The position numbers and the translations under genes are program-made. A stretch of 64,000 nucleotides of DNA, counting the filler, from Sphacelaria rigidula (taxonomy: Eukaryota), in NCBI GenBank assembly GCA_964200075.2. It is 7 parts of 7 records of this genome, joined end to end, with 100 filler letters (N's around TTAATTAATTAA, not from the genome) between each part and the next. Parts side by side here need not be neighbours in the genome. Positions count along the whole stretch, not along the records: positions 27,489 to 36,550 come from CAXNAA020009398.1; 6 more parts are not named here. One strand, given 5' to 3'. Below, piece by piece: positions 14,112 to 59,879 of the stretch (positions are counted from its first letter, which is position 1; every line of letters starts with the position of its first letter). The notes beneath the pieces are model-generated. The model was not told the DNA's origin, made no database searches, and worked only from the letters and a program-made list of their open reading frames with translations.

Positions 14112-14328
14112 TGTAATGCGTGAGAGGACCGCGTGCTTAGAGGACCGCATCGTAATTTGAACATCGCAATGGTTAGGGTTAGGGTTAGGGTTCGGGTTTG
14201 TGTTGGGGTTAGGGTCAGGGGCATGCTACCTGCAGGGACTGGCCGGATTGGTTTTGAAAAACGTCGATCCTAAGGTGTTTTGAACTACGGCGCGGTCCTC
14301 TAAGCACGCGGTCCTCTCACGCATTACA
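14112..14328. mobile_element. Telomeric-repeat MITE copy 2, inserted in the RTE RT
   Basis: Perfect ~37-bp TIRs, internal GGTTAGGGTTAGGGTTAGGG, flanked by GTTTC/GTTTC. Confidence 0.93.
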
Positions 14329-16290: not shown

Positions 16291-16505
16291 TGTAACGGGT
16301 GGGAGGACCGCGTGCTTTTCGGACCGCATCGAAATCTGAACACCCCAGGATCGAGTTTTTTCGAGACCGCCCGGGCCAGTCCCTGCGGGGACCGCGCCCC
16401 GGACTCTAATCCTAACGCTAATCCTAACCCCAACCCTAACTCTAACCATAGGGATGTGTAAACTCGGACGGGTCCAAAACCCACGCGGTCCTCCCACGCA
16501 TTACA
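16291..16505. mobile_element. Telomeric-repeat MITE copy 3
   Basis: TGTAACGGGTGGGAGGACCGCGTG ... CACGCGGTCCTCCCACGCATTACA, with an internal CTAATCCTAACGCTAATCCTAACCCCAACCCTAAC array. Confidence 0.9.
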
Positions 16506-16765
16506 GCGAAGACCATTTCCACCTAAAGCCATGTTGCAGAGACCGGCCATTTTTAGTGTTTCGTACTTGTCTTGTTTTGATTCGTTCGCTTGAATGGATT
16601 TTTCAGTCTACTCTGTCTGTTCTACTTCTCTTTTCTTGTTCTTTTACTTTCTGCAATGGATTTTTCCGTTTTTTTTCACTTCATCTCGTGTATGTCTATC
16701 ATGTGGATAATGGCCACGACCGGATCATGACTCCTGGGGGATCAGTTAGTGTGCAACAATCCACC
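16506..16765 (+). mobile_element. Retroposon 3'-UTR fragment (same family as 29360-29980 minus)
   Basis: Shares TTTCCACC.AAGCCATGT.GCAGAG, a T-rich tract, GTATGTCTATCATGTGGATAATG.CCACG and the GTGCAACAATC tail. Confidence 0.7.
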
Positions 16766-17990: not shown

Positions 17991-20456
17991 GGGAGTCGGT
18001 CAGCAACTAAATCGAAACGCGCAAATAACTCTACAGGTGGCACATGTTGGGTAAATAAAAACATCTCCATGCCGTATACAGTCGGTCGTTGTCGCCTGGT
18101 GCTCCTCCTCTTTGTCGTTCCGAATCAGCTTCGAAATTTATAGCAAAAAATTATGCGGTGCGAGCTGTGCTTTTTTTTTTTTTTCGTCCCCAGAGGACAG
18201 GAAGGAACCTTTTATCCATGCAATTCNNNNNNNNNNNNNNNNNNNNNNNNNNNNNNNNNNNNNNNNNNNNTTAATTAATTAANNNNNNNNNNNNNNNNNN
18301 NNNNNNNNNNNNNNNNNNNNNNNNNNATAGGAGCAGAGCGTAGTGATGGCCCAGGGTAGGGACCAAGGCAAGCCGGTAGCTGATTGAGATGGGGTAACGC
18401 GGCCTGCAGCCGCGGCTGAACAACCCTAACTAATGACAGTAGCAAACGCAGTAGCAACGCGTCACGGAATCCAGGGTCTACGAGCAGACCCGCACAGCGT
18501 ATATTTTGCAACGCCTCTCTGAGCTTCATCACAGTACCCTACTATCCTGGATTTCATGAGGAGCTTGCCCGAGTTATATATCCAGAAAGACATTCTCTTC
18601 TCTTTAGATTATACGATTTTCAATTTTCTCACAAAGGCTTGGTATCGAGAGAGGCCTGACGAGTTCGAATTTTCCTTGATAAGTCGTATCCACGACGTTC
18701 TCGTAATGAGATTGCAGACCATTAGATGTGTGTCACCGCTACACAGGCCTACAATGTATTACAGGGACCCCGATGTAATTACGGGAGTCTGAAAGTTTTT
18801 CTTTGTTTGACTTGTTTTTACTCTGAGTATGGTGAGCGGGCATAGAGTATCATACTGTGACACAATAAATCCCCTGTGTCGAGTCAAGCGCACATGACTT
18901 CTTCTTTTTGGTTTGCCTTTTGAGAGCACGGCGTAACACACGAGCGACAGGAGACATGTAATGGTCCCTGTATTATTGACTCTGTGTCAACAAGTAACTT
19001 GCGGGTTAATGTTTTGGTCAGGGTGAACTATGTCCTGTTCGATTGATATACAGGTTATATATGTATGTGGTATCTGATGTCACTTGTTGTTATATAGTCT
19101 CACAGATCCCGTCGGGAAAATTTGGTTTCATACTTTTATTGCTGGAGGAATTTCCTTCTACAGGGCTACGAAATGTGATGCCTATGCAACTAGTGTCATG
19201 AAGATGCATATCAGCCTGCTGTCATGCCGCTTCAGACCCGTTGTCGAGTCTGGCTTTTGGTATTTCGGGTATGCCGATATTTAAGACTGCGGATCTGTTC
19301 GGAGTTGGTCGGGTACGAATATGAACTTGTATATGGTAAGAGATGGTTACAGCTAGATCTACAGAATTGAAGATCTGGCACGCCTACCGTCTCACTACCT
19401 ACTGCTCCCCTACCCCTTTCCAGCAAAATAAATCTGAGCATCGGTGAGACGTATTGACTGGTTTGGGTTGGATTGATTGATTGGATACTGGAAGTTAGAG
19501 ACAAGATAATCAAGAAGAAGGGAAGAACCATCGCGTGAGAACTCGTCCTGACATATTGTGCTGAGCTGTGTTGAGCAGTGTGCTGGGCTGTGCCAGCCCG
19601 ACTGTTGTTAACTTGCCTTGTGAGCCTGTACTTGGACTGCAAGCTGTGCCTTGCAATAATAGCTGCGCAACCTCATTACATTTGGCGTTTGACTAAGGAG
19701 GTTCTTCTTGTGCAATTGCGTTTCCCTTCTTGACACCGATTTGTATCCCTTCCCGTCGGGCTGCACGAGCGCAGCTTTTGTGATCAATTCTGCCCCCCTG
19801 GTGTTTTTCTTCGGTTCAGGTACGGTACGTAGTCAAACCTATCGCTTCTCGATAGTCAGTCAGTAGCTACTGCAAAGCTTCCCATCTGTGCGCTACACCG
19901 TACATAGTACTCGTGACTTCCAGCTTTTGCTGCTTGCTGCTTGCTGCAACGTTTGACTGCACGCCCTGGGCACGCTGGATCACCTCGCATTGTCGCACCG
20001 ACCTTACCTTGTCGTTTTGCTGTGTATCTTGTAAAAACAATACACACCCGCACCTTGCACTGCTATTGCGGGCATTATACCTGTACAAGGTACCATCCCT
20101 GGTCGCTCAGTGCAGAAGGGTCACACCCCCGCCAGCACTGCCTTCCGTACTTGGCTTTGTTGCATCCTCCCTCCTGGCAGGAGAGGTCTTCTACTACAGG
20201 TTTGTTACAGAACACCAGTGCACAAAGTGCATTGCTGCTCATAGTCAGCCGCTGTTCCTGACATGGGCCCTTGCCAAGTCAGCAACCTGCCGCTCTCATA
20301 TTTTTCGTATCGATTTTACACGACTGTTGCATCTTTTGTTCACGAAGTCGCTGCGCAACACAACCCGTGCTCCCAAAGAGATGACCACGGGTATCTGTAC
20401 ACGAGATTTGTATCCGCTCTGGCACTTCAGTTTCGTCACGATCTACCTCATTCGTA

Positions 20457-20808: not shown

Positions 20809-21435
20809 AATAAACGCTCGTTTGTCATATTCCAGACCTACGCTACGTACCCATTTGGAGCAGACGGCACTCAAAACCAGTGCCCCATGCCTGTGCACTA
20901 CGCAGTCCGATCTCGCGGTCTACATCCCAAGCTTTGTAAAAGCTTTTGTGCTGCCCTACGCCGCACGACGTTTCGGTGCTCATCCACACATTTTTTCTGA
21001 ACACCGCCAGTCGTTTCTCAGCTTGTGCCGGGACCATACAGTTATAGTCTACCCGTGACGCCACAACCGGAACACGTGTGAGTTGTACAACTTTCACGTA
21101 CCAATGCTGCTACAGACAATTGGAATTTCTCTTTTATTCGACGCCATACATCTGTTTTGTGCGCAACCCCGAGCTTCCGTTGATAGCTATTACTGCCACA
21201 ACTTAGATACGTTGTATTAACTAGACCCCGGACATTGTTGTTACAGCAATTCGCTTGAATAATAATACTCGCGTTCATCAGGTCCCAAGGTCCCTCCAGG
21301 CGTTATTAGGCTTCATTATCCCGTAATTCTGGATACAAGCTTCGGCCGTTGTAGCATATCATGTCTTCATGTCACGCTCCTTTGATGAGAGCCCGCCGAC
21401 CAGACACACTGCCCCTGCCTTTTTAGGAACAAAAG

Positions 21436-24400
21436 TTGCGTACGATTCTCATGTCGCACAGAAACAACGCTGGCATTTCCCCTCAATTGGGAAACCAATC
21501 GCTTCGTCGGACACGGAGTCAAATCACTGGCGGTTCGAAATCTTTTAATTTGAGTGTCAGGTCACCTTCAACTCATCGCCGCACGTATGCGAGCGCTGTT
21601 CGATCTTCGGGATCTGAGGACCAACCTTCGAGCGATGCTTATTCTTCGATGCTTGAAGACAAGACTATAACGCCGCGACCTGTTCTCTCATGTTCCGACT
21701 CGGACTCAGAGAACAGGCTCGTGCTACCGGCTGAGTCATTGGTTCCTGACGGACATGTCAGTGAATCCATAACGGTGGATTCCGTAGCGCCCCCCTCGCT
21801 GCGTCCTGTTGTTCCGAATCCCAATATAGAATCCGAAGTCAGGATTGTGCCCCCAGCTGAGTCGTTGCCCCTGGACACATGTGTCCAGCTTGGCCTTGTA
21901 ACGGTTGCTTCAACCGTGGCACCCCGTCGCATGACGGCTGACAACTCTCGAGACGATTCTGTCCCGACGAAGCGTATCGCTTCTGGAGCAAGAGACTTTG
22001 TCACGCGGAATGTTTCCGTACCCCGTCGCATGACGGCTGACAACTCTCGAGACGATTCTGTCCCGACGAAGCGTATCGCTTCTGGAGCAAGAGACCTTGT
22101 CACGCGGGCTGCTTCCGTTACGGACCCCCATCGCACGACTCTCGATAATCCCGTGCGCCCCACTGCGCAGTCCAATGTCGGACCCGCAGTCGCGGCCATG
22201 CATGCTGCCATGCAGACTCTGCATCGCACTTCATCGGCGTCGTCGCACTCGCCAGCTTCAGCTCTCATCGAGGCATTTACGGCTTTCTGTCAGGCCACGC
22301 TCCAAGATCGCTCGGCGTCTGCTCACGTGCAATTCAATGATGATTCTGTACCTGCCACGCCCAAACCTGTACGTTTGGCACCCCGATCGGCGACATCGCG
22401 TCCCCCGTTCGTCACCCATGGAACATTCAACGCACATGAGTCCAGTCCCTCCTCAACGCCAAACCAGAGTCTTACTCGCGCTTCTGACCGGCGCCGCACA
22501 CCGACAGTTGGTCACGACCACGTCTCCCGTTCTGGCAGTTCTAAGGGCAACTCCCAGTAAAGCTTGAATTAACCGCGTGTTTTTACACGCCCGAACAATG
22601 TCGCTCATGGTCGCAAATATGACAGCAGTTCACGCCACAGTTCCAATTCATCGCGCGCTCCAAAGCGCCCGGTGAATGCCAACCGTGAACGTACTCACGA
22701 GGATGATTTGCGGGACAGATCAAGTTCTTCGCGCGCTTACACGCGCTCGAAAAACACCTATCATGCACCCGCGCGCACCCGTCCTGCTCTGCATCTGTCA
22801 TGCCGCCGTCATGTACGCAATGATAACACTGTACATGCTGATGATATCCAAAACATATTTTCGGAGATGTCACCGGCTCTGGAATCCTCAATTGAAAGAT
22901 CCGGCCGCACCTCATTGCAAAACCGACGACCCCGCACTGACTGCGAACCACCGTCCCGCTCCGATGCTGCGACTATTTGCTCTCTCCAACAACGACTGAC
23001 AGAAGTTGAGCGCCAACTCTCAACAATGTTCACCACGAGATCCACTGCCGCTGCCGCCAAGAGCACCACGGAGCCCACTGGCGTTCTGCAGCAACTGCTG
23101 CCGCAACACCTGCCGCTGCCGCCGCCGCTACCTTGGCCGCTGAGCCTTCTACCACGCAGACTACACTCACGGCCCCAACATCCGTGGCCGCCCCGTCCGC
23201 AGTCGACACCGACGCGGATAGCGGTTCAGCCACTGACCCGGTCGAGGATGCTTCCGTGCGCTCGCCCCCATCCGTGGAGGATCTTCCTCCACTCGGCGAC
23301 GAGTGCTGCCCGACTGGCCTTCTCTTGAGACTGTTCAGAAACCGCCCCCGCGCGGAGCAGCTGCAACTCATCGACGACTACGCGTCACAATCACCAGCAC
23401 TCGCCCAAGACATCCTCAACCACCAACGCGAAGCTGACGCCGCCGCTGCCCGGCTCCTTCTGAAGGAACACGCTGAGAAGCAAAAGGGTCTTCAGCGGCA
23501 GGTCTCCAACGCTCAATGCACGAGCACGGCTGCCCAACTAGCGCTTCAAGAAGGTCGTACCTCAGCCATGGCGGCTCAGAGACGGGTGCGCGAATTGGAA
23601 GATCATGTCCGATGGACGGCTCAAGAAGCGGCTACGTCGGTGGCGCGCTTGTCCAACCATCAAGTCTCTCCGCCTTTCGCCAGCAACTTGCTCAGTGCCC
23701 GTCCGCCTCGCCAGCCAACAACCAATATGTCTACTTATGTTATACCACGTAAGTCCGACAGGACATCGTATGCTGCGGCCGCTGCCGCCCCCACGACGGC
23801 CCCAACACCACCACCTCGAGGAGCTAGCTCGGCGGCGAATGCCGTTTCTGCCCAAGGTTTGCAACTGGCGCCCCACGAACAAGAGTGGCTTTCTCGTTCC
23901 GTGGCTGCCCATACCGGTCCTCTTCATCGCAACAACCACCCTCATTGCTCACGCGAAGCATACACCCAAATTCGCAGCGACTGCTCTACACCGTTGCTGT
24001 TTACGTGGACCAGGGCGGCTTCTTCCCCAAAGAGGGCGTATCGGTGTTCACCTTGGGCCAACTGGTCCTCCAAACGACCATTGGCGATCACCAGGAACAC
24101 CTGCCTTACGTTGACGCCGTCATCAAACTTTTCGCGGCGCTCCGCGCTGCCTACAACCCTCATCCCGGCGCCACTGTCGCCGACGGAGACGAAGGTAAAG
24201 ATAGGTGGACTCCCGCAACCACAAACTGCCGGGGACAGAAGAAACACCACCGGCGAGATGACAACGACAACGATGGCGGAGGTTCACGCCGCCGCCATGG
24301 CGGTGGAGGATATTCTTCGGGCGGTTCCGGACCGAACCGCCCGGCTCGCAGCCCCTGCAACCTGCCCCGCAAGAAATCCGGAGGTAATTCTTCCGGATCT

Positions 24401-27388
24401 TCTGCAACCGGCTGGAACCGGTCCGGTACAGACCTTCCCCCCTCGGGTCCGGCGACCCCCAGGCAAGTGATTCCTAAATTAGCTGATGTTTCGGCCCGCA
24501 TTTTAGGTTTATCTGATACGGATACACCTGACCGCCCTTTGTCTTCTACTACAGCCCGCGCCCTTAGCAACCGCTGCGGCTGACAAAAAGGTTCCGAAGG
24601 TAGCAAAAAAGCAGCTTCCGATAGAGCTGAGTCTGCCCGAGTAGCTGCAATACAGATACAGTATATTCAGATGGATGTGAAAAAACTCTGGCACATTAAA
24701 ACTATGCCTGCTGCGGATGACGAAGATTCGGGCCAGCTTACTTCTGCCCTTATCACGTCCATCCGCCGCACTGCTTGTAACATCTTTCACTTGGCGGATG
24801 CGACTGGCACACAACGTTTCGGAGATTCCGACTGGGTAGAGGGCTGGCAGACTGCCTTGCACAAAGCATTGCGTCGATCCATCAGCCGCCGCTCTCCCGA
24901 CCTCGCTGCTTCTTTAACGCAGATTCTCGACGGCTTCCTCGCCGAAATGGATCCGGACCGTGCTAAGGGGAAGGAAGGCCCGGTATTACTCTCTGATTTG
25001 GAGAGGCGTTTAATTGGATACTTCGACAAAAGTGACCAGGCCAGCGCCATCCAGAGGTTGTGTTCTTCTGTCGTCGCATCTGATGTCCCCTTCGCGGGTT
25101 ATCTCCGCGAATTTCAGCTTTTGGTTTCGGGTACGACGTGTGTCGGACGCCAGAACGGACCGAGCGATGTAATATGTCAGACTTCTGTTCGCAACAGCGT
25201 TGCTCAACAGTATCTGGCTCTGATGCCGTCGTTGTTTCCGGGTGTCTTGGCGCATCGCGAGGTGCCTTACGCCTCCGTTGATACTATGTGGTCTGCTTTT
25301 GTAGACCAAGAGGGTAATCTAACGCCTGCTATACGTGGCAAACCTTCTACGCCTTTGCGTTCACAACCTACGACTGCGTCCTCCGCCCATGCCCAAGGGG
25401 CTCGCGGCAGGAATTCGAGCTCATCTCGCGCTTCATGGACCCCCGACTCGGTCGCCGATTCAGTTATGCATGCTCAGAGTACCAGAGATGCATTTAGCGC
25501 GAGTTTCGATGATTGGCCGTTCTCCGAGGAAGCTTGGGGTGATGTTTATTTGACTTCAACAACGGCATTCATTACCGATGACCCCCACTTGTGGAACCCA
25601 CTCCTTTCGTCTTCCGCTAGACGCAATGCCTTCAGCAGTCATGCCAACAGTTGCATCAACTGTAGCGTTCAAGGCCACAACATGTGCGACTGCGACAGTC
25701 CATGCATGAACGCATTTGATCTCATGAACCTTGAATTGTAGGACAATGAACCCGCGTGGCGCCGATGGCAAAAACGCATGCGCGACTACCGTCCACCTAA
25801 TCGAATTACCGTAACACTTCGAACCAACGTGGTAACAAAAGTTGTAATCGCGGTTGCTGACAAAACAACAATCACGCAAGCTCTCGCCAGAACGATCAAA
25901 ATTCTCGCGACAACAAACGTTCCGCTGATAGACACCAGCGGACGGGACCGACGCAAAGCTCGAATCCCAACACCAGAAACCCCGGTACCTTCACTTCGGA
26001 TCGCCTAGATCCATGACGTGCCGACACTGGCGTTATTTGGTCTTCCACGCCGCCGACAGCACGAGCGAAGACTTTCTCAACACAGCCCGCGGAATCCGTG
26101 TCCAAAATTGCTCACTCGACTCCCCCGGCACTATCCAGGAGCGTAACTGACGGCCGTTCAAATCGACCCCCGTCTCCAACCTCCACCCAATTTTCAACAC
26201 AGCCCGCAGAGCCCGCGACTAAGATTGTCCGCCCGGCTCCCCCGGTACTATGCAGGAGTAAATCTGACGGCCGTTCAAATCGACCTCCGTCTCGACCCCT
26301 CCAGACACCGCGTAACAGTTTTGTTACCCCGCGACTCAGACCTACACCCGGGTTTGAACTTGGTCCTTCAGTGCCGAGTATAAGTCTGAGGTGTGGGAAG
26401 ACCAACCGCCAGTCCCTGAGGCAAAGGCTTCCCTCAGCGACCGCACGCACAGGTAGTAGCAAGCCTTTTTCAGCTGACCCAAGTGTTGCTGATTTGAACT
26501 TGACCGCATCGGAACATGTAATTCCCAATCAGTTGGATCGAGCTCCTTCCCCGCGATTTTCAACACGCACGGACCTACCTTCGGTCGGTTCTAATAAGAA
26601 CCGTCTCAACATATCCTCGGCCATGACCCAACAGCCAAGCTTGCCTACGGAAAGCAGTCCACAACTTTCGCTCCGTCATGCCCCGATGCTGACCCCATCC
26701 ACGCAACTGGACGCAGTTGTGGTTTCATCCCAAAATGTTTTGGAAGTTCCCCCCGACCTTTATCACGGCGAAAGAGAAAGCCCTGTAGGCATGCCCCCAA
26801 TCACGCGCGCGCATCATCACGTACACCTCTTTCGAGCGGAAATCCTCGATCTCAATCTCTCCAAAATTCGACGACTCTGAGTTCGACGGCTCTCTCAAGT
26901 ATCCCGGAAAAAACACAATCAAACAATTCTGACGGCACTACTTCCTCAACCGATGGCTCCAGCCCCGCACATTCTGGATCCCTCTTCGACGGTGATCCCT
27001 GTCAACCAAAGACGATCATTTACGAAATCGCCAATGGTCACTCTGCCCGTGCCACACCTGGAAATAATTTACCGTCCACCCCCTTCTCTGGTGAGACATC
27101 TGACCCACCGGCGGATCACCCGCCGTGCGTTTTTGCTGTCAGCCCTGCTGATCCTGACCAGTTTACCTTGCCGGAAGACGGTCCGGATCTTGTCGGCGGT
27201 AAAGTGTCTGTAGATCGGGCCACTTTCACCACTTGCGTTGCGATCCATTCCGGTCCAAACGCTATCACGCCTACGAAACATGTATCCTTGTTGGACAGCG
27301 GCAGCCCGAAAACATTTATTAACAACAAATTGTGCGAATTGAGGTTTAACTTCGAGATGAGGCTCAAGCCCAAAACAGTGCTTTCCCC
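21436..27388 (+). pseudogene. LTR-retrotransposon Gag-protease region (probably Ty3/Gypsy), disrupted and truncated by the contig end
   Basis: Chain of long ORFs; 23885-24583 and 24671-25741 are in the same frame across a TGA. CCHC knuckle CINCSVQGHNMCDC at ~25652-25693. Aspartic protease motif LLDSGS at ~27288. Internal 99-bp (21922/22021) and ~120-bp (~26075/26195) coding repeats. Confidence 0.8.
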
Positions 27389-27488
27389 NNNNNNNNNNNN
27401 NNNNNNNNNNNNNNNNNNNNNNNNNNNNNNNNTTAATTAATTAANNNNNNNNNNNNNNNNNNNNNNNNNNNNNNNNNNNNNNNNNNNN

Positions 27489-28479: not shown

Positions 28480-28588
28480 AGAAAAATGTTAGAAAAGTAC
28501 TCGTATCGATTCATTTGGTACTAGTACCTTGCAATCATTTTTTTTTTTTTTTTTTTGGTTTTTTTTTTTTTTGTTTTTTTTGTTTTTA

Positions 28589-28619
<31 letters not shown>

Positions 28620-28780
28620 GTTTTGTTTGTCGTTCTATTCGACTTTTTTTTTTTCTGTTCATTCTTTCTTCTAGAGTGCGTTTCAGTTTCGTTCTTCTTG
28701 GGCACGTCAATCATGAGACCACGGCTGGACCCCTGGACCCCTGGGGGGTGAGTTAAAGTGCGACAATCAATCAATCAATA
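28480..28780 (+). mobile_element. Retroposon 3' end with long T-rich tract and (CAAT)n tail
   Basis: Poly-T 28537-28655, then GAGACCACGGCTGG...AAAGTGCGACAATCAATCAATC. Confidence 0.65.
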
Positions 28781-29980: not shown

Positions 29981-31249
29981 GATTGCACGAAGCTCACACC
30001 GTACTGCGGCGTGGAATATGCTGTCACTTCATGGACAAGTACGGCATGCTACCTACCAGCTATCGTTCAATGTCAAGGTTATCCTGGTAGCCTCATAAAA
30101 AAGGACGCAATATTTTTTCCTCGTGGATTAGTCTTGACTCTGCGTACGCCGCTTCTTCATTTGTGACAACGGTGTGGGTGGGACGTTGGAAGCCTGATGA
30201 GCGCTACCTACTTCCACTACTGTATGAGTTATACCATATAGCTGAGTAACTCATAGGTTTTCCGGCCTGTGAACACCTTGTAGTGGGTTTTGGACTGGAG
30301 ACAAGTCAAGCGGAATCTTTGAGCAAATTTTCTTCGGTAGGTATCGTACTTCAACCAAGCTGTCACGTGGATGAAGCATATGTAAACCCGCCGGAGCTCT
30401 TGTAATAAAACGCTGATGATCGCAAGATTACGTGCGCTGCCTGAGTGAGGTAAGAGACAGTATCGCACGAGAGCAGCACTTTCTCGTAGCACCACAAAGT
30501 TGGTCCGCGCAGGAGGGGTGGTAAACACCGAAGCAGCGATGAACTCCACCCTTCCTCGTCGCACGTTATCTGATTTTGCTCTACATTTTCGGTTATATTC
30601 CCCCCCCCTTACATATGTAGTATACTTCAATCGTTCTCACAATCGTTTGTACTCGCTGCGTGCTTGCAGTTTGCCCTGAAGATAATGAGGGTCAAGTGTT
30701 CAGTGTACCACCCCCTGGACAAAATATTATATTGTCAAAAAATGTAGCGCAGTAGTCGATACTGTACGCCGTACACGTTTTGACCATGTTTTATTTTATC
30801 ATCATCCAGGGTGTGCAGTGCACGGACCGGGAACCCGCGTGCGACATCCGTCATCATCTACGAATATACGGAGACATTTGAAAGTGTATATATGAAATAA
30901 GGAAATGGCCGGTGCAAACAGTGAGAGGAGTGGGCGGGGATGATTGATGAAACATCTGTGCCAGAAGAAGAAAGTCGACGTATGATTGGCGTAGTGTATG
31001 TTGATATTTGAACTATTCTCAATCATGTTCTTCCGTACAAATGAACACTGAAAGACTGTTCCTTACAAAATGGGTAACTGCCTCTATTTTGTTAGAGGCT
31101 TGGCATGCTCGATGTTGCGATAGCCACCACATGGCACAGCAGAACAGGAAGACAAGCACCAGCCTACGATGATAAAACTGTGAACGTTAACTACATCCCC
31201 CCCCCCACCCACACACACCTGTAATCCATATGTAAAATAATCATATGTA

Positions 31250-31446
31250 AAATAATCAGTACCCTTCAGGCCGAACAATCTTGGCACGATGTAGCTCACC
31301 CTTCATGCGACTCGCCGAACACGTCACGGCGCTTCGCGCTTGGTGATTGCGAGGCCTTGTCCGGCGAAAACCCGCCGTGCTCCGTCCCGGCTTTGTAGGG
31401 ACGCGAGGTCAATGTACATGACTACGGCATGCAAGATCATGAGTAC
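31250..31446 (+). mobile_element. Oligo(C)-tailed LINE 3' end, family B
   Basis: Ends GGCATGCAAGATCATGAGTAC followed by C-runs. Homologous to 40406, 40697, 43549, 44290 and 59576. Confidence 0.85.
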
Positions 31447-31710
31447 CCCCTCCCCCCCCTCCCCCCCGTTCCTTTACAAGAACGTTGGGTTCGTTACGGG
31501 GTACGAATTCAACCCCTAATTTTCAGTTGAGGGTAAAGTCTCTCAGGCGCAGGCTCTTGTTGAAAGTCACGTTGCAAGTTATGTATAGTGTCACTATGGA
31601 AGTACTCCTATGAAATCTCAGAGCTCATGCTTTCATTGCGCCGTACTGTGGTAATTTTTCGTGAAATTTTGCACCAAAATATTACACACATCAACTCCCC
31701 CCCCCCCCCC

Positions 31711-32070
31711 TACCGTGGCAAAGGAATAGAGAGCAGAAGTCACATAGTGGCAGAATGTTAACTATACAAGAGGGAACGGGACGTGCTAGAAGGGGAAATG
31801 CGGGACGTGAACCAAGGTAGCATGAAATCGCTTGATGCTTTAGACAGTAGGGAGAAAACGATGGCTATACTAAGAGACAGATGGTGACCACAGACAGCGA
31901 AACAGGACGGAGATAAGATATGTAAAAGGTTTTCGTGTAATGTATGGAAGAAACGTAATGAGCACCAGAATGTTGAGGATATCTCTATCAGGAGTAGGAA
32001 CGGTGCTCCGTTTCGAAAGGGATGCGTGGCCAATGGTCAAAGGACTAAGGGCAAGCAACGAATGAGTACG
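31711..32070 (+). mobile_element. Oligo(C)-tailed LINE family A, longest copy, encoding the ORF2 C-terminus
   Basis: Translates GKGIESRSHIVAEC*LYKRERDVLEGEMRDV...VWKKRNE...GCVANGQ, resembling the end of a LINE ORF2 CCHC finger (ES..H...C). C14 run on the left, C12 run on the right. Confidence 0.85.
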
Positions 32071-32117
32071 CCCCCCCCCCCCACACCCACCCACCCTATC
32101 CCTCCGCTTCAAAGCAG

Positions 32118-36390: not shown

Positions 36391-36650
36391 CTATCGTGGT
36401 CCATTGTCCAGAGCGTGGACATTGCAGAGAGCTTGCACGTGACTTCGACAGCCTGAGCCTCAGAAACTTTACCTCAACTGAAAATGAGGGGCTGCATTCT
36501 CACCCGCATTCACTTTATACCTACGTACACTCTTTCAAAGAAGGGAGGGGNNNNNNNNNNNNNNNNNNNNNNNNNNNNNNNNNNNNNNNNNNNNTTAATT
36601 AATTAANNNNNNNNNNNNNNNNNNNNNNNNNNNNNNNNNNNNNNNNNNNN

Positions 36651-36738
36651 TGCTATCTCTCCAAACCTCCGCTGAATACCGTCCACCCTACTTTTGGATT
36701 CTGGGGGCATATAGATGTTCCCGATGAAGAAGTCCTTC
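36651..36738 (-). mobile_element. LINE APE endonuclease fragment
   Basis: KDFFIGNIYMPPESKSRVDGIQRRFGEIA resembles the GxxYxPP motif of APE domains. It directly follows the C-run of an A-type 3' end. Confidence 0.6.
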
Positions 36739-36750
36739 GGGGGGGGGGGG

Positions 36751-36881
36751 TACTCATTTGTACTTGCCCTGGTCGTTCGACTACTGACCACGCATCCCTT
36801 TCGAGACAGAGCACCGTTCCTACTCCTAATAGAGACACCTGCAACATTTCGGTGTCTCTATTAGGAGTAGGAACGGTGCTC
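36751..36881 (-). mobile_element. Family A LINE 3' end ending in a 31-bp perfect fold-back
   Basis: G12 run at 36739-36750. Arms 36809-36839 and 36851-36881 are exact reverse complements. Confidence 0.85.
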
Positions 36882-38084
36882 CCACTTCCAACAGGGGCAA
36901 AAGATGGGTCGATCGTATGAGACGACGAACCAGGGCTGAGGGACGGGACGGGAAGGGGTTAATAGTATGACGAACCTTCCCCCCCCCAAAAGCCAGGGTG
37001 TACTCTCAAGAACCAGGTATTTTTGAAACACATAGGGGGAGAAGAGGTGGCGGCAAGGAACAAGTTCGATACGCTTGGAGGAGAGAGGGGGGCATGCGAA
37101 AGACGCAGCGAGGCAGGTGATTACTCAAACGTGCGGATGACGTTGCAGGTGCGCTTGTTCGGGGATCACCAACAAAAATCCGATTTGCGTGCGTGACTGG
37201 TGGTGGGAAAAATGGACAGTAAAATATACCACTCAAACGCGGTTGGTTCATTTTCTCATCAGTGTACTTACTGACCGGGCCTTCCTTCTCATACCATCTA
37301 TCTCTATGAAGCCCTGGTGACGTCTTGTCCGGTCCTCTTTTTCCGGAGCCGTTATTCTTTGTTCAGCCTGACGTGGACGTTAGTGTAGAATGTTCATATT
37401 TCCCTTCTTTCTTTCTGCGTTGCCCCTTTTGTCGAGATTCCTGTGGAGCGAGTGTCCCCCGTTTTTCATCTAGGATGCGTCTACATGTTGTGACGACGGG
37501 TGGATTCCTATCGAATCAGTCGACGTGGGGACAATTAACCGATCAAACTACAATTCTATCAATCGAATCAATCAGATCACGTAGTGTTCAGATATCAACA
37601 ACAATTTTTCGATTACTCGCGGGCAACTTGGCTGCTGTGGACGTGCAAGTAGTATTCACATCAGCAAGCGGAAAATATGTGGCATCGTAGGAAGTTGCAC
37701 ATACGCTAAGCAACGGTTCACACTGAACACTCAGAACAACAGACAACAGATTCCACACTGTACGCAGTACACTTTTTGACAATGTAATCTGTAGTCACTA
37801 TCCAGTGTGTGAACTGCTCCCCGAGCAGAAACAGCAATCAACAAACAGCAAGCAACACCAAACGAGAATCCACAGGCGACAAACGACGAGGGACACACGC
37901 AGGACCAAAAGGGAAAAACAGTGACAGCAATAGCAACAGCACCACTCACGGCATCACAGGGCAGTAACGACACGTACATTCTGAATGCACTAATACTGGA
38001 ATCCGTTGCTGTAATACATACGTGCGTCTCTTGTAACGTACAAAAGTATGCCCCCCAGCAACACTCACACGATACACACCAGAT

Positions 38085-39950
38085 TGATTGACTTCTACCA
38101 AAGTGCATACACACCAAAGTCATCAGCATGCTTGATCTAAAAAATGATTTTCTTCTTCCTTCTACTAAAATGCACACAAACCAAAATAAGCATATTTAAT
38201 CCACACAATGATCTGTTTTTTGTTCCTTCTCCTCAAGTGCGCACATACCAAAATCAGCACACTTGCTCTACGCACAATGGCATGTTTTTTTCCTTCTCCC
38301 AAAGTGCGCACATATCAAAATCAGTATACTTCATCTGCTAGAGCTCGGAAACGGTACCATTTATAATTGGCCATTATCATCATGGTGGTAATATCCCTAA
38401 CCCTAACCCGGGCCCAGCGAGTACGAGATCCTCGGGCAAGGGGGGCGCATAGGTTTTTCTAGGCAAAGTGTCCGTTGGCAGACGTCGAACCGACGCTGCA
38501 GGCGCCGGTTTCGACAAAGACACGTTCTGAACCAGCTGGGTCCACTGCTCACCTGCCCTGAACTATACACTTTCTCAGATTTGTTTTCAGTCTAAAATCA
38601 AGTAGTCTTGCCGTCGACCATGGATATACGCCCAAGGCTGTAGGCCTACAACCAGCGGGGCCAGCAAAAAAAGCAAGCGAAAACGGCCGCCATTCCGGCC
38701 AGCTCTGCTCGATCTGAGCGACTTTTACCCGTCGCTGGACAGGTAGTAACCGAAAAGCGGGCCTGTCTTTCCAGCGACAGCGTTGAGCTTCTGGTCTTCT
38801 TGCGGGCGGTGTGGCCTACACTAGACGCATGGGCTGGGCAGAAAAAAAAGCGTGCCACAGGCGGTGTTCTGTGTTCTGGCTAGTAGTTATAAGGTCAGTA
38901 CTGCGCGCTGACGTCATGGGACTTTATGGAAGTGTTATCTCCTGCTTGACTTCGTAGTCAGGATTTCTTACAAGTACATCAGAGTATTGCTTTCCTTCTT
39001 GTAGTGTGTCTTAAGTCGGGTTATCTTTTAGTCCGGCGTCGCCGCTAGTTGTTTTGTCCAATATAGCACAGCGTTTCACTGCTCTTGCCTTTGTCGTCTT
39101 CTGTTCCAGATTCATTTGTCCTATGACCACGGCTAGATGCGCAGCGAATCAGTGAATAAATGTTGGGAACTCGAGAAATCAGTCAACTGTGTGCATCTCG
39201 TACATTTACGCTTGTGTACCGTGCCACCGTCTTCCGACACCAACTGAGCCATCGCTACCTAACCGCCTTCTTGCCGAACAATTATCCCGATGTCAACTTC
39301 AGGTGGTGCAAAGCACATCCATGGTGCTCTGCCACGATGGTGCTCTGCCACGTTGCCTGTCTCAAGCTCGCGGCCAGCATTCACCATCGATGGCTCGTAC
39401 TTCAGTTCTATTTTTTTCGATCGATAATGAAAGAGACTAGGTATGACGGCTCTTTTTTTTCCCGATAAATATCCAATCGGCTACTTCTACTCATCGAAAT
39501 TCCAAGCCAGGTGTGCTATGGCCGCTATGGTTTTGCCCTTCAAAATTGGCCAAAATTTGACGTATTTTTTCGCTCTAGTGAAGCCAAATCGCGTAAAAAC
39601 GTGCCTCCGGCTCGGCGCCTCCAGCGGGGCCCTCCGGGGGCACCTCCGGCGGAACCCCCTCTGCCGGGGGGGGGGGCGGCGGCTTTTGGACTAAACCGTC
39701 ATGTACCATTTGACTGGTTAATAGTTAGACAAAACATTTCCAAGCTCTAGGATCTACACAATGATCGGTTTTTTCCTTCTACTAAAGTGCGCACATACCA
39801 AAATCACCATACTTGATCTGCAAAATGATTTGCTTTTTCCTTCTATTAAAGTGCGCACGTACCAAAAATACCATACTTGATCTGCAAAATTATTTACTTC
39901 TTTCTCAGCACCACAGTGCACATACCAAAACCAGCAGGTTTGATCCACAA
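38085..39950 (+). repeat. ~60-bp degenerate minisatellite split by an inserted element
   Basis: Unit TTTTCCTTCTACTAAAGTGCGCACATACCAAAATCACCATACTTGATCTGCAAAATGAT at 38085-38338 and 39750-39950. Confidence 0.85.
38339..39749. mobile_element. Non-autonomous hAT-like element
   Basis: TIRs TAGAGCTCGGAAA / TTTCCAAGCTCTA. Degenerate 8-bp flanks TCATCTGC / GGATCTAC. Confidence 0.6.
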
Positions 39951-40123
39951 AAAGGATTTGGTCGGTAGTACACGTACGGCCCTCAAGCTACAGAGGACAT
40001 CGTTCTAGATTACAACCAAACAAAATATAACTGTTCTGAAGCTCATTACCCAGTGGGGTACTGACAAGCGTTGGTACATGATCCATCTCTTTCTGGTCTT
40101 AGGTATCTTCCAATGGGGGGGGG

Positions 40124-40189
40124 CGTACTCATTTGTTGCTTGCCTTAGTCATTTGACCATTGACCACGCATCCCTTTCGAGACGGAGTC
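40124..40189 (-). mobile_element. Family A LINE 3' end with target-site duplication
   Basis: CCAATGGGGGGGGG is present at both 40110-40123 and 40190-40203. Confidence 0.9.
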
Positions 40190-40405
40190 CCAATGGGGGG
40201 GGGGATGGGGGGGAGGTTTATCTACAAAAGGACGTTTTTAGTAGTAAACGTTTGGCCCTTTAACTACAGTACACACCGTTCTTGATTGCAGCCGAAACAA
40301 ATGTACTTGTTCGTAAGCCCTTTACCAAGTAGGGTACCGAAAAGCGTTGATACATGGCCTAATTTTTCTGTTCTTCGGAATCGTCCAGTGGGGAGGAGGG
40401 GGGGG

Positions 40406-41003
40406 TTCATGATCTTGCATGCCGTAGTCATATGACCATTGGTCTCGCATTCCTACAAAGCTTGGACGGAGCACGCCGGGTTTTCGCTGGACCAGACTTG
40501 CATTCAAAACACCAAGCGCAAAGCACCATGATGTGTTCGGCGAGTCGCATGAAGTGCCAAGATTGTTCGGCCCGAAGCCTACTGATTATCTTGCATTTGG
40601 ATGACAGCCTACGATGAGTTGCTTTATTTTCTGGTATCGCCACTGTCAGAGACAGCCATGGCTTATACACTGCGTCATGGGTCTCACGATGGGGGGTGTA
40701 CTCATGACTATGTCATATGCATAGTCACGAGACTATTGACCTCGCATCGCTACAAAGCCCGGATGGGGCACGCCGGGCTTTCGCCGGACCAAGCTCGCAC
40801 TCAATCCCCGAGCGTGAAGCGCCGTGGTGTGTTCGGCGAGTCGCATAAAGGGTGAGCTGTATCCCGCCACGATTGTTCGGCTCGAAGCCAACTGACTATC
40901 TTGCATTTGAATGACAGCGTCCAATGAGTTGCTTTATTCTGTGGTATCGCCACTTCCAGAGACAGCCACGGCTTTTAGACTGCCTTATGGGTGTTTTACC
41001 ATA
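40406..41003 (-). mobile_element. Two head-to-tail family B LINE 3' ends
   Basis: Copies at 40406-40684 and 40697-41003. CACGATGGGGGG is duplicated at 40685 and 41004. Confidence 0.88.
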
Positions 41004-41279
41004 CACGATGGGGGGGGCGTAATCGTGTGGGAGAGAAAAATGAACCAAGTATGTCTTGTACCTGTTGTAACTTGTGCCTTTTGCACGAGAGACACAAGCT
41101 TTGGCACGTCTGTTGGTCTTCAAGCCATCTTTCAACGAAAAAAATATGGGCACAACGTCATCACACTCGTATGATTCTCTTTGTGTCAGGTGGATCCCTC
41201 CTCCCTGCAGGGATAACAAGCTTTGGGAGTGTGACAAACCATCTCTTCTTCTTGATATTTTGAAGTATCCTGTATTTTC

Positions 41280-43489
41280 CAGGGGTCTACACGTCGCACG
41301 TTCACGGTTCGTTCATCACGTTAAAAAAAATGAAAGTTCACGTTACGTTACGTATGTCACGTTAAATGTATTCTAACGTTACGTTAACGTTTTATTTGGA
41401 AAATTAACGTTACGTTCACTTTACGTTCATCACGTGAAAAAAACATAACGTTACGTTTCGTTACATGTAACGTAATATGAAACGTTTCAATTTCACGTGT
41501 CACGTCTAATATAACGTTACGTTGACACGTATAACGTTCGAAAGTAACGTTTCATTCTGTGCATGTCGCGGCTCATTTACCAGTGTTGATGCCTTGTAAC
41601 TTGTCGTGTCACGCGTGATGTTACCGTGTACGTGACGCTGACGATGATCTGTCGGCTACTTTTCATGTATAAAAAAAACTATACGAGAAATGCGTTTTCT
41701 GATGAACGACCAAGAACACACTTCTTACATGATCCGAAAACGCGTTTTGTTTCACAAAACATTTTCTGATAACATTTTCCGATAGCCCCAATTTATCAGA
41801 AAATCGGGATTTTCTCATAGCTTTGGGCTATCGAAACTTTTATTGAAAACGCGTTTGGAATCCCGTCGCACGCCAACACACCCTCTAGCCCACGACAGCA
41901 ATGGTGGCTTGGCTGCCATCACCACTGCTGTCGCTGGTGCTCGCGGGCAGTCAGCGTGTTGCTTCATTGTCCTTCGCTCGCCAGTATCATGGTGGTCCTT
42001 TACCCCATGAGAACAGCACAGGGCAAGGTCGATGACGAGTGCTGTACGAACACTCTGTATGTAGTTTGCACAGACAGTGTTGTAGCTCGCAGTTCAGGTT
42101 TGTGCATGCAGCGTGTTTTGAAGAGCACTCGCAATGCATTACAGACTGCCCACGCACCCAAGACTTGTAGAGACAGGATCGCACTGACTGTAGAGACAGG
42201 ATCGCACTGACTGTATACACAAGACCACAGTATAAGCAGTGCTACTACTGTAATGTCTACAGGGCTTGGGTGCTTGGGCAGTCTGTACTGTATTCGAGTG
42301 CTGTTTGCAGCACGCTGCATGCACAGACCTGGACTGAGCTGCAATACAGTGGAAACTACATACAGAGTGTCTGTACAGGACTCGTCATCGACCCTACCCT
42401 GTTCTGTTCTCATGGGGGTGAGGACCATCAGCCTACTGGCGAGCGAAGGACGGTAAAGCAACACGCTGGCTACTCGCGAGCACTAGCGACAGCAGTGGTG
42501 ATGGTAGTCAAGCCATCGCTACAGCCAATGCATAAAATACAGTCCTGTTGCCCGTGCTGTCCTTTCAGCCAAGTACTACCGTGCAGTGGAAAAGCACAAC
42601 CGTCACTTCTACAGCCAGTTATAGTACAGCAAGGCGGTGTTCGTATTGATCGTCTTGCGTCACGCAGCCCACCATATATTGCTCGAGCAATGTATCACAG
42701 TAGTACAGACAGTCAGTATGGATCGTACACCACAACACGGCAGCAGAGTGCTGCGTATCTCTCGCGCGCCCCAGAATTTGAAATCATGCCTGCACACCTC
42801 ACAGAAAACGATGAGAACTGCGTTTCTAATTTTGACAGAGCGTCGATCACGTGAGAAGAGCTACTTTGACAAATTATGTGGAAAATCGCGCTGTTGAAAA
42901 ACGGCTTGCCTGACAACGTGCTTCTCTATACATAAGAAGTAGCCTTGAATGTGGTCGAGATAATTATGATGTTATGATGCAGTGCTGCACGATAACTTGG
43001 AATGTGGGGTGTGGTGGGGAGAGCGCGAAATTGTTGCAATAGTACCATACCTATACCATGATCATTCAACCTCACTCGTGCTTATCGAAGCACAGTCTTC
43101 TGGAATTTGAAAATTCATTGCAAACTTGAAGTTTGACCACTTCATGTGCCATGTTCATGACGTTTCATGTAACTTGTGACGTAACATGCAACGTTACGTG
43201 TAACGTCTAACGTCTAATGCAGGCGTAACATGTCATAGACGTTACACGTTGCATGAAACGTTTCATATTACGTGATTTGAACGTTTGGGCAATTAAACGT
43301 TTATGTTACGTTACACATGTCACGTTAAAAAACATTAAGGTTACGTTAACGTTTCCTTTGAAAATTTAACCTCACGTTCACGTTACGTTCATCACGTAAA
43401 AACAATGCAACGTTCACGTAACGTTTCAGCCAAAACGTAACGTGAACGTAACGTGTAACGCCGTGGCACGTGTAACGTGTAGACCCCTG
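41280..43489. mobile_element. Non-autonomous hAT element (2.2 kb) with ACGT-rich subterminal repeats
   Basis: TIRs CAGGGGTCTACACGT / ACGTGTAGACCCCTG. Perfect 8-bp TSD GTATTTTC at 41272-41279 and 43490-43497. Confidence 0.93.
41905..42515. repeat. Long imperfect inverted repeat (~265-bp arms)
   Basis: 41905-42170 is the diverged reverse complement of 42255-42515. The spacer contains a short tandem duplication. Confidence 0.9.
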
Positions 43490-43548: not shown

Positions 43549-43613
43549 CCCGGCTTTGTAGGGATGCGAGGCCAACGGTCTCATGACTGCGGGATCCAAG
43601 ATCATGACTACAC
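43549..43613 (+). mobile_element. Family B LINE 3' end
   Basis: CCCGGCTTTGTAGGGATGCGAGG...AAGATCATGACTACAC followed by a long C-run. Confidence 0.8.
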
Positions 43614-44289
43614 TCCCCCCCCCCCCCCCCCTTCCCCCCCCCGCCCGCCCCCTTCTTCCTTGACCTCAAACAAATATTCTGCATATTCGTCGCAATAGCC
43701 GCGGTACGAACGCCTCTGCAAGCAGCCGCATAAACTGCAAAAGTGGCCCAACGTACACGGAGAAGCCGTGAGGTGTCGATGATATCCTCCCATCATCCCA
43801 TCATTGATACATTTTATAGGGTGCGGCGTGGCCTCAGCACAACTCCAGATAAGTACCCGGCTGTTCAGCTGTTTTTCTTTTGTCGATTTACCACATCGGT
43901 TCGATGTTCCTGGTTATCGTTAATTTCGTACCGTTCTCTCGACTACAGTGTTTATCAAGTCTTTGCTCCCAGTGAAAAATCACACAGTACTTTCAATACG
44001 TGAACTGACTTCAGTTATAGGGGGGTGACGACGGCTAGCAGCTCAAGTATTCGGGTTAAGAGTACCTCCCCTCTCTTGAAGGGTTGGCGCCGGTTGGCAC
44101 CGGTTGGCAATGACGCTGTAAAATACACCACTCGCTGCGTAAGCTAAGCAACCAGAATACCGTTTTTTTCCCCTTGCATTTTTCTTGCGCCAACAATGGT
44201 GGTGGTAGAATTACATCATGTTGTGCGGGGTGGGAGAACCTCAATTTCGCGCAAAGAGGATGATTCTACTACGGTGTGTTGGAATGGTG

Positions 44290-44589
44290 AGAAACCCATT
44301 AGGCAGTGTATAAGCCAGGGCTGTCTCTGAAAGTGGCGGTACCAGAAGAAAGAGCAACTCATTGGACGCTGTCATCCAAGTGAAAGATAATCAATTGGCT
44401 CCGGGTCGAACGATTTCCGAAGGATACAGCTCACCCTTCATGCGACTTGCCGAACACACCACGGCGCTTCGCGCTTGGTGATTGATTGCCCGCCTGGTTC
44501 GGCGAAAACCCAGCGTGCTCCATCCCGGCTTTGTAGGGATGCGAGGTCATCGGTCATTTGAATACGGCATGCAAGATCATGAGCACACA
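44290..44589 (+). mobile_element. Family B LINE 3' end
   Basis: Translates VYKPGLSLKVAVP...GCEVIGH.NTACK and ends CAAGATCATGAGCAC. Confidence 0.85.
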
Positions 44590-45657
44590 CCACTTTCCAA
44601 CTCTTCCCTCCTCCCCAAGCTTCGGCTCAAGCAAATCATCGGGACAATGTACAATTTTTCACTCGCAGACTGCGTACCACACTCGCATTATCATAACATA
44701 TCGGTTCCCTTGACTCAAACCATCACACCAGTGTTCACGGACAATTTCAGCCCAGCATCCAAGGCTTTGGATGCAATGAGAAGATATTTTGGCCGCGATG
44801 AATATGAGAAACACGAAGTAAGTTGTCCTTTGGAGGGGCCAGGGGGGGGGGAGGGAGTGAGTTCTCACGTATGTCTTCGCCAAGCATCCCCAAGAGGAGG
44901 CAGCGGCACGGGGGGTTTTGTTGGTTCTCGAGCAAACATATTTTTTCAAGTGACACAATTAAACTCTCCAATTTTCCATAGATATGACGAAGAATCATAA
45001 TATTTTCCTGCCTCTCCATGTTCCCTGCGTCCTGTCGCACTACTACATGTGTTTGCCGATGGTACCCTAGTACTTGTTGGCTTGTCTATTCATAGATAAA
45101 ATGGTGTCCTGGTTTAATATAAATTCAATACGTTTGTTGTTTGGGAGTTGTTGGGGTTGTTGGGGGTGGATTACTTGTTTTTTTTATAAAAAGGGAACAC
45201 AATATATGGGCCCGTGGACTGAAACAATCCCATCCAGAAAATAGTTGAGATTGGGTACCGGTACGAACCAGTATTTATCTACACTCCAAAAGTACCCCTT
45301 TTGAAGCAGCAACGACTACAGATCAAAGGCGCCCGCCCGTTTCACAAGCGGTGGTGTTATGCATCAAGCTATGCAGCCGATTCCGGCCCAGCCTTACATG
45401 ATATCCCGTGTTCCGACACTTGCCCTTGGCGCGGACTGCCGCAGAGGTACACAACGAACACAGACGGGGGGAAATGCTGCGCCGGGAGTTACAGCAGGTG
45501 CCCCGAAAAAAACTGATACGTCCGGCAGTCGATAGATATTCCACGTACCGGAGGGGAAGGGGTACCCGGCACCGCACATACCCTCACTAGACTCATTAGG
45601 GTATGGTACCCTGTAGGTAGAGTAGGAGTCACGCTACGATAGGAGGGGGGGGGGGGC

Positions 45658-45712
45658 GTACTCATTTGTTGCTTGCCTTAGTCATTTGACCATTGACCAC
45701 GCATCCCTTTCG
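45658..45712 (-). mobile_element. Family A LINE 3' end at contig end
   Basis: G-run at 45645-45657 followed by CGTACTCATTTGTTGC. Confidence 0.88.
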
Positions 45713-47199
45713 NNNNNNNNNNNNNNNNNNNNNNNNNNNNNNNNNNNNNNNNNNNNTTAATTAATTAANNNNNNNNNNNNNNNNNNNNNNNNNNNNNNNN
45801 NNNNNNNNNNNNAAAAAAAGAACGCCCCCCCCCCCCCCCCCCTCACCCGATTCACCGTAAATAAAACTGTACGCTATATAGGGCGTCGGACACAAGAGCG
45901 TCTAGTGTAAAATAGTGTTTCGAAAATGATCATTTTTATTCGGATAAAGTATGGGAAGAAAGCGGACACGAGTGTATTGATTTCAGTATGGAGCGGCAAG
46001 ACATTTACGCCAATAATATATTTGATAATAAGTTTGATCATTATTACTTCCGCACATTAGCCCGATATCTCGAACCCGCGGTCACAGATGTAGGCTTGCC
46101 TTACCAGCACCTTCACTACTATTCTTCACAAGAGATAGAAGCGCTTACCAGTGTTGTTCCTTTTCAGTAATATGGAGGTGGTACAAAGGGAGACATGGGC
46201 GCCCAAACACAGCGCACCCGGCGTCTGATGGTGCTGAAACTTAACGTATGTGCGGCTTGCAGCCGCAGGTAGGTGTTGACGCAGCACCGGCGACCGAAGG
46301 CGTTTTGTGCACTGTGTGGTTCGAAAGGATGATTATGCACGATGATGCGATGATTCCTAAAATTATATCACCTTCTAATGACAATTCTAGGCAGCGGCAG
46401 ATCTTGTCAGCGTTGTCGTTTAGGTCGGCCGCTTGTCGGTCAGGGCTGGCAGCAGCACCGCAAAGAACCACCGGTCAAGGGTCGCCATATGCTAGAGGTA
46501 GATGCCCTCAGGTTATACACGACGTGTCGCGCAAGACGCGGCCGTGCAGCGTAGCCGAAGAGTAGAATGTCTTCTGCCAAGGACCACTGCGGACCTGTTC
46601 GGGGAAAGGGCAACTTCTCCTTCCAAAAAGTGCCAGACTTAGCGGGTCGGCTACCACGACGGTCTGACGAAGACAGGGGTGGTTGCTGTAGTATCCTTCT
46701 ATCAGACTCAACCGGAAATTCTTACGGTGCACGCTCCCAGGTGAATATCTTGAGCTTTCTCTGAGAGGCGCGTGATCGCCCTTCTGTGCTTTTTTTCCCA
46801 ACATGTCACTTCGTTCCAGAATAGGACAGGGTGCAAGTTCCAATTTTCAATTTTCATGGATGAATCGCGGGTATTCCAGCCTAGCCGAGGTGTGTTTCGC
46901 GTCGTACAGTCAGTACTACAGTACTCGTTGTCCTGCCGGCTAGAATTATACAGTGTCAACTTGGTCGGGTATTACCGGGCCGCGATAATTTTCGTGTATC
47001 GAGTGCTTCCTCTCTCCGCAGTGGTATGCAGCCTTCCCCTCCGGTTGTCTCAGCGACGGCGCAGGTCTGCAGCGCCATCTTGCAGTGCTGATGTGGACAC
47101 CTCTCTTCCAAGGACGTGTGCCCCTCTAGTCTCGGCATGTTCGAAGCCTTGGATCATGACCGTTTCTCATGGACACCGCGGATGATGAATTATAACCTC

Positions 47200-59856: not shown

Positions 59857-59879
59857 CGGGCGGGGGGGGGGGGTACACC

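Follow-up and report, generated by a model that had tools for sequence, protein, structure and literature searches.

Introduction

For L1, it is established that poly(A) pairs with a T-rich nick, and other LINEs carry tail repeats. The sharing of a LINE 3′ end by a partner is the usual SINE/LINE arrangement. To our knowledge, site choice and the start of reverse transcription are known in detail for only a few LINEs, namely L1, R2 and some silkworm elements. A LINE that uses C/G homopolymers in nature would be a clean case for comparing endonuclease specificity with primer-template pairing.

Several described systems come close to such an element. In RTE elements, the TSD starts with T and has a T stretch ~10 nt upstream of it, and the first TSD base correlates with the 3′ microsatellite-like repeat (PMC6007223, in the excerpt available). 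The available part of PMC4640811 counts microsatellites and telomeric repeats among the known LINE targets. The curated libraries of the brown alga Ectocarpus contain CRE, RTE, RTE-X and unknown LINEs (PMC12477816, Table 1), and the same paper, in its accessible part, describes RTEX-N1_Ec32 as an abundant non-autonomous Ectocarpus element whose 3′ end is common to RTE-X LINEs.

Here we analyse two repeat families, A and B, in a stretch of 64,000 nt from Sphacelaria rigidula, the whole of which is called the window. The preference for insertion at C/G runs that we describe is real and well supported; base pairing as its mechanism is what we infer. Like L1, the LINE behind family A combines an APE endonuclease with an RT, and there is 5′ truncation, one 5′ inverted duplication, TSDs of ~8-20 bp and a 3′ homopolymer that runs on into the first bases of the TSD. 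Unlike in L1, the homopolymer consists of C in place of A, there is neither a polyadenylation signal nor a real 3′ UTR, since only 5 nt come after the ORF, there is one ORF in place of ORF1 plus ORF2, and the RT resembles human ORF2p only remotely (E 7e-21 in a PDB search, about the same as the 9e-20 for an R2 protein). Also, in contrast to Alu with L1, the partner B has a specific 3′ sequence in common with the LINE.

With RTE and RTE-X, the element has in common the single ORF for APE and RT, the very short 3′ UTR and the lack of poly(A); the family A LINE has, in addition, a C-terminal CCHC motif. The source names and Atlas names of its relatives point to no clade. Abundant non-autonomous partners with the 3′ end of the LINE are a further likeness to RTE-X (PMC12477816, accessible part). 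A homopolymer stretch near the target is reminiscent of RTE, although here the TSD itself begins with the C run (PMC6007223, excerpt). As in the microsatellite- and telomere-repeat LINEs (R1, Tx1 and RLE clades), insertion is into a simple repeat that is found on both sides; however, the copies here insert at mononucleotide C/G runs, a kind of target not named in the available part of PMC4640811, and the preference is strong without being absolute (9/13 5′ flanks). In searches of full-text literature, neither a C tail nor insertion into G/C runs came up for any LINE; such tails may already be recorded in Supplementary Material 3 of PMC12477816 or in Repbase/Dfam, which lie outside that scope. 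A text search within PMC3812793 gave no match.

Make-up of the window

The window consists of seven pieces of ~9062 nt, joined by artificial spacers of the form N44-TTAATTAATTAA-N44.

9064-9163, 18227-18326, 27389-27488, 36551-36650, 45713-45812, 54875-54974: artificial spacers

The N10 at 61191-61200 is a real gap, separate from these spacers. Three pieces start or stop within family A copies or their G runs, so that these repeats probably break the assembly. The Rfam search of the whole window, at gathering score, returned no family, and neither did a Pfam search with six long ORFs elsewhere in the window. Some of the public runs that contain the window stretch are labelled algae or protist metagenome.

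Family A and its full-length relatives

Self-BLAST, direct reading and tblastn together give nine fragments of family A in the window, i.e., eight 3′-end copies and one fragment from the endonuclease region. The motif ATGAGTAC occurs nine times against 1.67 expected, a count reached in 0/100 shuffles. The fragments and their flanks are as follows.

9164-9224, minus strand: family A at a piece start, last bases missing; C8 lies 10 nt upstream of the 5′ end (G run 9235-9242 on the plus strand)
31697-31710, plus strand: C14 directly 5′ of the copy at 31711-32070; candidate 5′ TSD copy, C only
31711-32070, plus strand: longest family A copy of the window, 360 nt; last 120 codons of the LINE ORF, ends AATGAGTACG
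32071-32082, plus strand: C12 directly 3′ of this copy
36651-36738, minus strand: longer 5′-truncated LINE copy, endonuclease region (P0003 residues 273-302; tblastn E 1e-9)
36750-36854, minus strand: family A, 105 nt; C run next in sense (G run 36739-36749 on the plus strand)
40110-40123, minus strand: 3′ TSD of the copy at 40124-40187, in sense C9 ATTGG
40124-40187, minus strand: family A, 64 nt (self-BLAST, reading)
40190-40204, minus strand: 5′ TSD of this copy, in sense C10 ATTGG
45657-45712, minus strand: family A, cut by the piece end; C12 next in sense (45645-45656)
54980-55045, minus strand: family A at a piece start; only C5 of the 3′ run visible, 5′ flank CCCCAACCCCCC
61148-61167, minus strand: 3′ direct repeat bracketing a composite, in sense C9 TTGCCCCTCCC
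61168-61190, minus strand: family A 3′ end, 23 nt, after the N10 gap, then C9
61375-61436, minus strand: family A, 62 nt, then C6; leftmost unit, in sense, of the composite
~61435-61450, minus strand: 5′ direct repeat bracketing the composite, in sense C5 TTGCCCCTCCC

The longest copy has two in-frame stops. Its translation with X at these positions (P0001) matches the C-terminus of P0003, a 1360-aa protein with APE and RT, at E 4e-39, and P0002 at 1e-44; by tblastn, the copy spans residues 1246-1360 of P0003. A first-pass annotation of this DNA had seen in the longest copy a C-terminus like that of a LINE ORF2; that the copies are LINE 3′ ends is supported. The best named relatives of the family A protein come from brown algae, S. 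rigidula and Ectocarpus sp.

P0003 carries Exo_endo_phos at residues 170-392 and RVT_1 at residues 740-989 and, by sequence reading, a CCHC motif (CPCG...H....C) near its C-terminus. Two loci from other assemblies, L001 and L004, are whole elements with intact ORFs of 1426 and 1382 codons and are 78.6% identical to each other across 4.7 kb. In P0003 and these two ORFs, RVT_1 is found at E 1e-30 to 7e-32 and Exo_endo_phos at 3e-12 to 8e-11, and Exo_endo_phos_2 passes its cut-off in P0003 and L004. The ORF of L001 extends from 421 to 4701, and its stop is followed by 5 nt (GTACG) and then by a C run. All relatives have a protein that ends in ...KASNK and a TGA stop that lies within AAATGAGTAC. 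Because the stop codon sits inside this motif, the 3′ UTR is only GTAC(G); with practically no 3′ UTR, the 3′ end that is recognised is hence coding sequence.

The LINE hallmarks in the window are 5′-truncated copies of 23-360 nt, one 3′ end, variable TSDs of 8-20 bp and no LTRs. Judged by its sequence, family A corresponds to the 3′ end of an autonomous APE-type non-LTR retrotransposon with a single long ORF, from a brown-alga-like stramenopile. Protein-pattern scans of the genome_contigs and viral_contigs collections gave no relative, nor did DNA-pattern scans of viral_contigs. The 20-mer GGGATGCGTGGTCAATGGTC, which encodes GCVVNG in the LINE, was found in 53 stretches of genome_contigs, 52 of which are bacterial genes (L005-L056) that encode MGCVVNGPGE and that we take, from their look, to be IspG. 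These 52 matches were rejected as LINE relatives, the likeness being a coding coincidence; only L004 is a LINE.

The 105-nt copy at 36750-36854 is accompanied by an inverted duplicate (~31 nt) of its own 5′ part at ~36855-36886, with a loop of 11 nt, which looks like the product of a 5′ inversion or snap-back. The C run that trails this copy abuts the 5′ end of the endonuclease-region fragment 36651-36738, which itself runs off the piece; loose ends of public contigs at 36739 continue into the ORF of other copies. In four of the six family A copies with a visible 5′ end (40187, 61436, 55045 and 9224), the sequence stops 62-70 nt from the 3′ end, and the loose-end consensus of public contigs shows the same common 5′ stop.

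Family B, a short partner

Family B has eight copies in the window, of an element of ~310-375 nt with stops in all three frames.

31241-31446, plus strand: family B, 5′-truncated, ends ATCATGAGTAC; then C4 T C8 T C7 (31447-31467)
40407-40690, minus strand: family B; C8 upstream and C8 downstream (40398-40405)
40697-41003, minus strand: family B, nested at the 5′ edge of the copy at 40407-40690
41004-41017 and 40685-40696, minus strand: TSDs of the nested copy, in sense C8 ATCGTG and C6 ATCGTG, respectively
43549-43612, plus strand: family B 3′ end, 64 nt; then CT C17 TT C9
44214-44587, plus strand: longest family B copy, ~375 nt; no C run at either end
55044-55239, plus strand: family B 5′ part only, back to back with the family A copy at 54980-55045
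59571-59857, minus strand: family B, slightly 5′-truncated; C12 GCCC directly upstream (59862-59873), C5 at the 3′ end
61204-61352, minus strand: family B 5′ part in the composite, cut by the N10 gap

The upstream C8 of the copy at 40407-40690 is now split from it by the nested copy. The B copies align to L001 and L004 only across the last 58-66 nt (E down to 2e-11); a resemblance over 13 nt of the 5′ end of B to L004 at ~312 (E 2.6-5.6) was discarded as chance. B had at first been taken for a second LINE with a similar end peptide. This view has to be given up, as B is non-coding and only its last 60-65 nt are common to the LINE. Since B carries this 3′ part, it is probably mobilised by the LINE protein in the manner of a SINE/LINE pair, and on sequence grounds we regard it as a non-autonomous partner with the LINE 3′ end. 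For a Pol III-type head (tRNA, 7SL or 5S) on family B, the window gave no Rfam match at gathering score.

With respect to the RNA, single-sequence folds of the 3′ end had z values of -2.0 to +0.15, and the alignment fold contains 11 pairs with one both-sided change. A conserved 3′ hairpin is possible.

The first-pass annotation had counted about 15 copies of the two families on five contigs. Every position that it listed holds up, but the copies are on four of the seven pieces (five if the N10 gap is taken as a break), and the endonuclease-region fragment at 36651-36738 had been overlooked.

3′ junctions

A run of at least 5 C that starts no more than 12 nt past the 3′ end was found in 11 of the 13 copies with a visible 3′ junction, against a background of 1.0% (binomial P ~1e-20); the count rises to 12/13 if the CCCCC of the B copy at 59571-59857, which was scored as body, is taken as tail. 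Poly(A), or any run of A, G or T, was seen at 0/13 of these window junctions, and an A run at the 3′ end of 0/4 loci from other assemblies. These four loci all end in GTACG (ACTACG in L003), followed by C10, CCTC7.., C11 or C13; in L001 and L004, the order is TGA GTACG and then C10 or C13. As this C-run end is common to subfamilies that are ~21% apart, it is no accident of one source copy. The earlier description, according to which the 3′ end stops at a common motif, usually with a C run and in no case with poly(A) after it, thus agrees with 11/13 window copies and 4/4 external loci.

Family A in public contigs

Contigs of four public runs from three studies were compared with piece 5 of the window, and the best 15 of ~2190 joints were considered. 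Family A is a very abundant repeat in these contigs. In run X1, its bins have a summed word depth of ~1.5-3.2 million, against 57-84 for single unique contigs, a measure that is not a copy number. Past the family A 3′ end, the consensus of contig ends is a G run (antisense strand); past the common 5′ truncation point, it reads CACCG and then G-rich sequence. Joints from 40187 to 45642-45652 represent family A, a C run and family A again, head to tail and with variable run length. Among the joints listed, such A/C-run/A joints are carried by 103 contigs in X1, 32 in X2, 79 in X4 and 3 in X6. Head-to-tail chains of this kind are to be expected if new copies insert into the runs next to old ones.

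The chains could also have another origin, in that the 62-70-nt family A unit and its C run would form a satellite-like repeat, spread by unequal exchange or replication slippage. Besides the many head-to-tail joints, it would account for the fact that four of six copies stop within ~10 nt of one another. However, copies with different TSDs are dispersed on four pieces, their lengths vary from 23 to 360 nt and are joined by a fragment from the endonuclease region, and intact autonomous copies exist, all of which makes this origin very improbable.

One may further ask whether the G/C runs are real, given that homopolymers are error-prone and that three copies lie at piece ends and one at the N10 gap. 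That the runs arose through errors of sequencing or assembly where repeats begin or end is nevertheless hardly conceivable: they lie within contigs, with matching unique TSD bases after them, and the same ends recur in four other assemblies and in the contigs of the four runs and three studies.

Past the 12-nt run at 45645, the loose-end consensus is G for ~22 more positions (agreement 0.38-0.44). This hints at some runs that exceed the usual target length, which would point to slippage.

5′ junctions and TSDs

At least 5 C within 25 nt upstream were found at 9 of the 13 visible 5′ junctions, against a background of 2.4% (P ~1.6e-12), and the long LINE fragment at 36651-36738 provides a tenth case besides these; in 4/13, the 5′ flank has no C run. 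The counts are not fully independent, because two of the nine runs are tails of neighbouring copies.

The three TSDs that had been reported to hold the run do so, namely CCAATG9/CCAATG10 (40110, 40190), CACGATG6/CACGATG8 (40685, 41004) and GGGAGGGGCAAG(5-9) (61148, 61435). The third pair brackets a composite of A, C6, B, the N gap and A, not a single simple copy. As seen from the 5′ junction, the run of the TSD lies beyond the unique bases; it was thus not added there and must derive from the target. For the nested B copy at 40697-41003, the target consisted of a C run together with the 6 nt at the beginning of the older B copy, and the run hence existed before the insertion. Runs alone are found on both sides (5′/3′) of the A copy at 31711-32070 (C14/C12) and the B copy at 40407-40690 (C8/C8). 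In four of five pairs, the length of the 3′ run does not exceed that of the 5′ run (12 vs 14, 9 vs 10, 6 vs 8 and 8 vs 8, the exception being 9 vs 5). Therefore, the run can be wholly target-derived, and an added tail is not required. Taken over the three TSDs and both junctions, the position of the run within the TSD corresponds to the L1 geometry, with A/T replaced by C/G, as had been suggested, and that A and B target C/G runs is well supported.

The whole elements add an ambiguous case. In L004, the 7 nt GTTGGGG after the C13 recur ~150 nt upstream of the start of the L001 alignment, with no C run before them. If this is the TSD of L004, its C13 would be a tail and would not derive from the target. 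A candidate TSD of L001, the 8-nt CCTTATCA, was rejected, since the stretch is homologous in L001 and L004 and thus lies inside the element.

The same data bear on the possibility that the C run is nothing but an RNA-templated 3′ tail, lengthened by slippage, at sites that were not chosen for C/G runs, such that the upstream runs would be tails of older neighbours or chance. The three TSDs, in which the run and the same unique bases stand on both sides, speak against it, as do the excess of 5′ runs over background, only two of which are neighbours' tails, and the 3′ runs that do not exceed their 5′ counterparts in 4/5 pairs. We therefore consider it unlikely, even though it would accommodate the possible L004 TSD without an upstream run, the B copy at 44214-44587 without a run at either end, the composite with C9 on its 3′ side and C5 on its 5′ side, and the G consensus past 45645, which suggests runs longer than typical targets.

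The window as a whole is rich in such runs. It contains 20 C/G runs of at least 9 nt, against 0.47 in shuffles, and 33 of at least 7 nt, of which 16 have no adjoining recognised copy. These 16 may be free targets or relics. Before each of four free runs (45825-45842, 39666-39676, 15536-15543 and 55852-55859), the sense strand reads ...CG, which is also how the GTACG of family A ends; they may be what is left of extremely truncated insertions, or chance.

A possible mechanism of integration

Insertion into C/G runs could be brought about in more than one way. In the sequence of events that we favour, the first nick would be made in the strand that carries the G run, close to or exactly at the 3′ edge of that run, whereby the run would open the TSD and abut the element 3′ end GTAC(G). 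The transcript would carry C's after GUAC(G), copied by read-through from the run that flanks the source copy, and these C's would pair with the 3′ end of the oligo(dG) and so set the start of the cDNA. Each insertion would leave a C run on both sides, and with it new targets, head-to-tail chains and many G/C homopolymers. That all of this applies jointly, i.e., an autonomous LINE A and a partner B that shares its 3′ end, integration at C/G runs, and a nick followed by pairing of read-through C's, we regard as probable, with some reserve.

A bolder version draws the parallel to L1 more closely: an oligo(C) RNA end would anneal to an oligo(dG) nick as a GC mirror of L1, the targets would be self-made, and the element would be a main source of the long G/C runs in these genomes. 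We hold this for possible and put it forward tentatively. As the run is duplicated at every insertion, on the pairing reading the element would make its own targets.

A similar picture would arise if the choice of the site were left to the endonuclease, with an APE domain that recognises and nicks G/C homopolymers, an RNA without C's and an element that is strictly tailless. A G-run-specific endonuclease is compatible with 3′ runs that are not longer than the 5′ runs in 4/5 pairs and would give the same picture; the last 60-65 nt kept between A and B are reminiscent of LINEs that recognise a specific 3′ end and not a tail. Pairing fits the present data equally well, however, and the source copies all have C runs, so that a read-through RNA would carry C's anyway; moreover, on the 3′ side of the composite there are 4 C's more than on its 5′ side. 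We consider a purely endonuclease-driven choice rather doubtful.

A LINE that uses C/G homopolymers would also explain why assemblies of these algal genomes break at long G/C runs and short-repeat chains, and for RNA-templated insertion tools it could be the source of a protein whose target rule differs.

Other features of the window

Other repeats and possible retroelements were noted in the window. A chain of long open frames at 21427-27440 (plus strand) contains tandem repeats of 99 nt and 117 nt and a CxxC...H...C-like knuckle (CINCSVQGHNMCDC), with no Pfam match, and may be the gag-like part of another retroelement. At 14421-14804 (plus strand), there is a weak RT likeness to residues 780-903 of P0003 (26% identity, E 4e-5), which probably belongs to a different retroelement.

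A repeat of ~220 nt is present in both orientations at 9368-9593, 14111-14335 and 16289-16506, with telomere-like GGTTAG/AACCCTA units. A tandem repeat of 64-67 nt forms two arrays, at 38085-38338 and 39751-39952, which are 1.5 kb apart. The 167-nt inverted repeat 41905-42071 / 42349-42515 has arms that are 86% complementary and lie 277 nt apart, and it may be a foldback or MITE-like element (41905-42515); ACGTT-rich repeats are found near it, at 41297-41479 and 43291-43428. Finally, a long T-rich low-complexity tract with runs of T19, T14 and T19 is located at 28538-28654.
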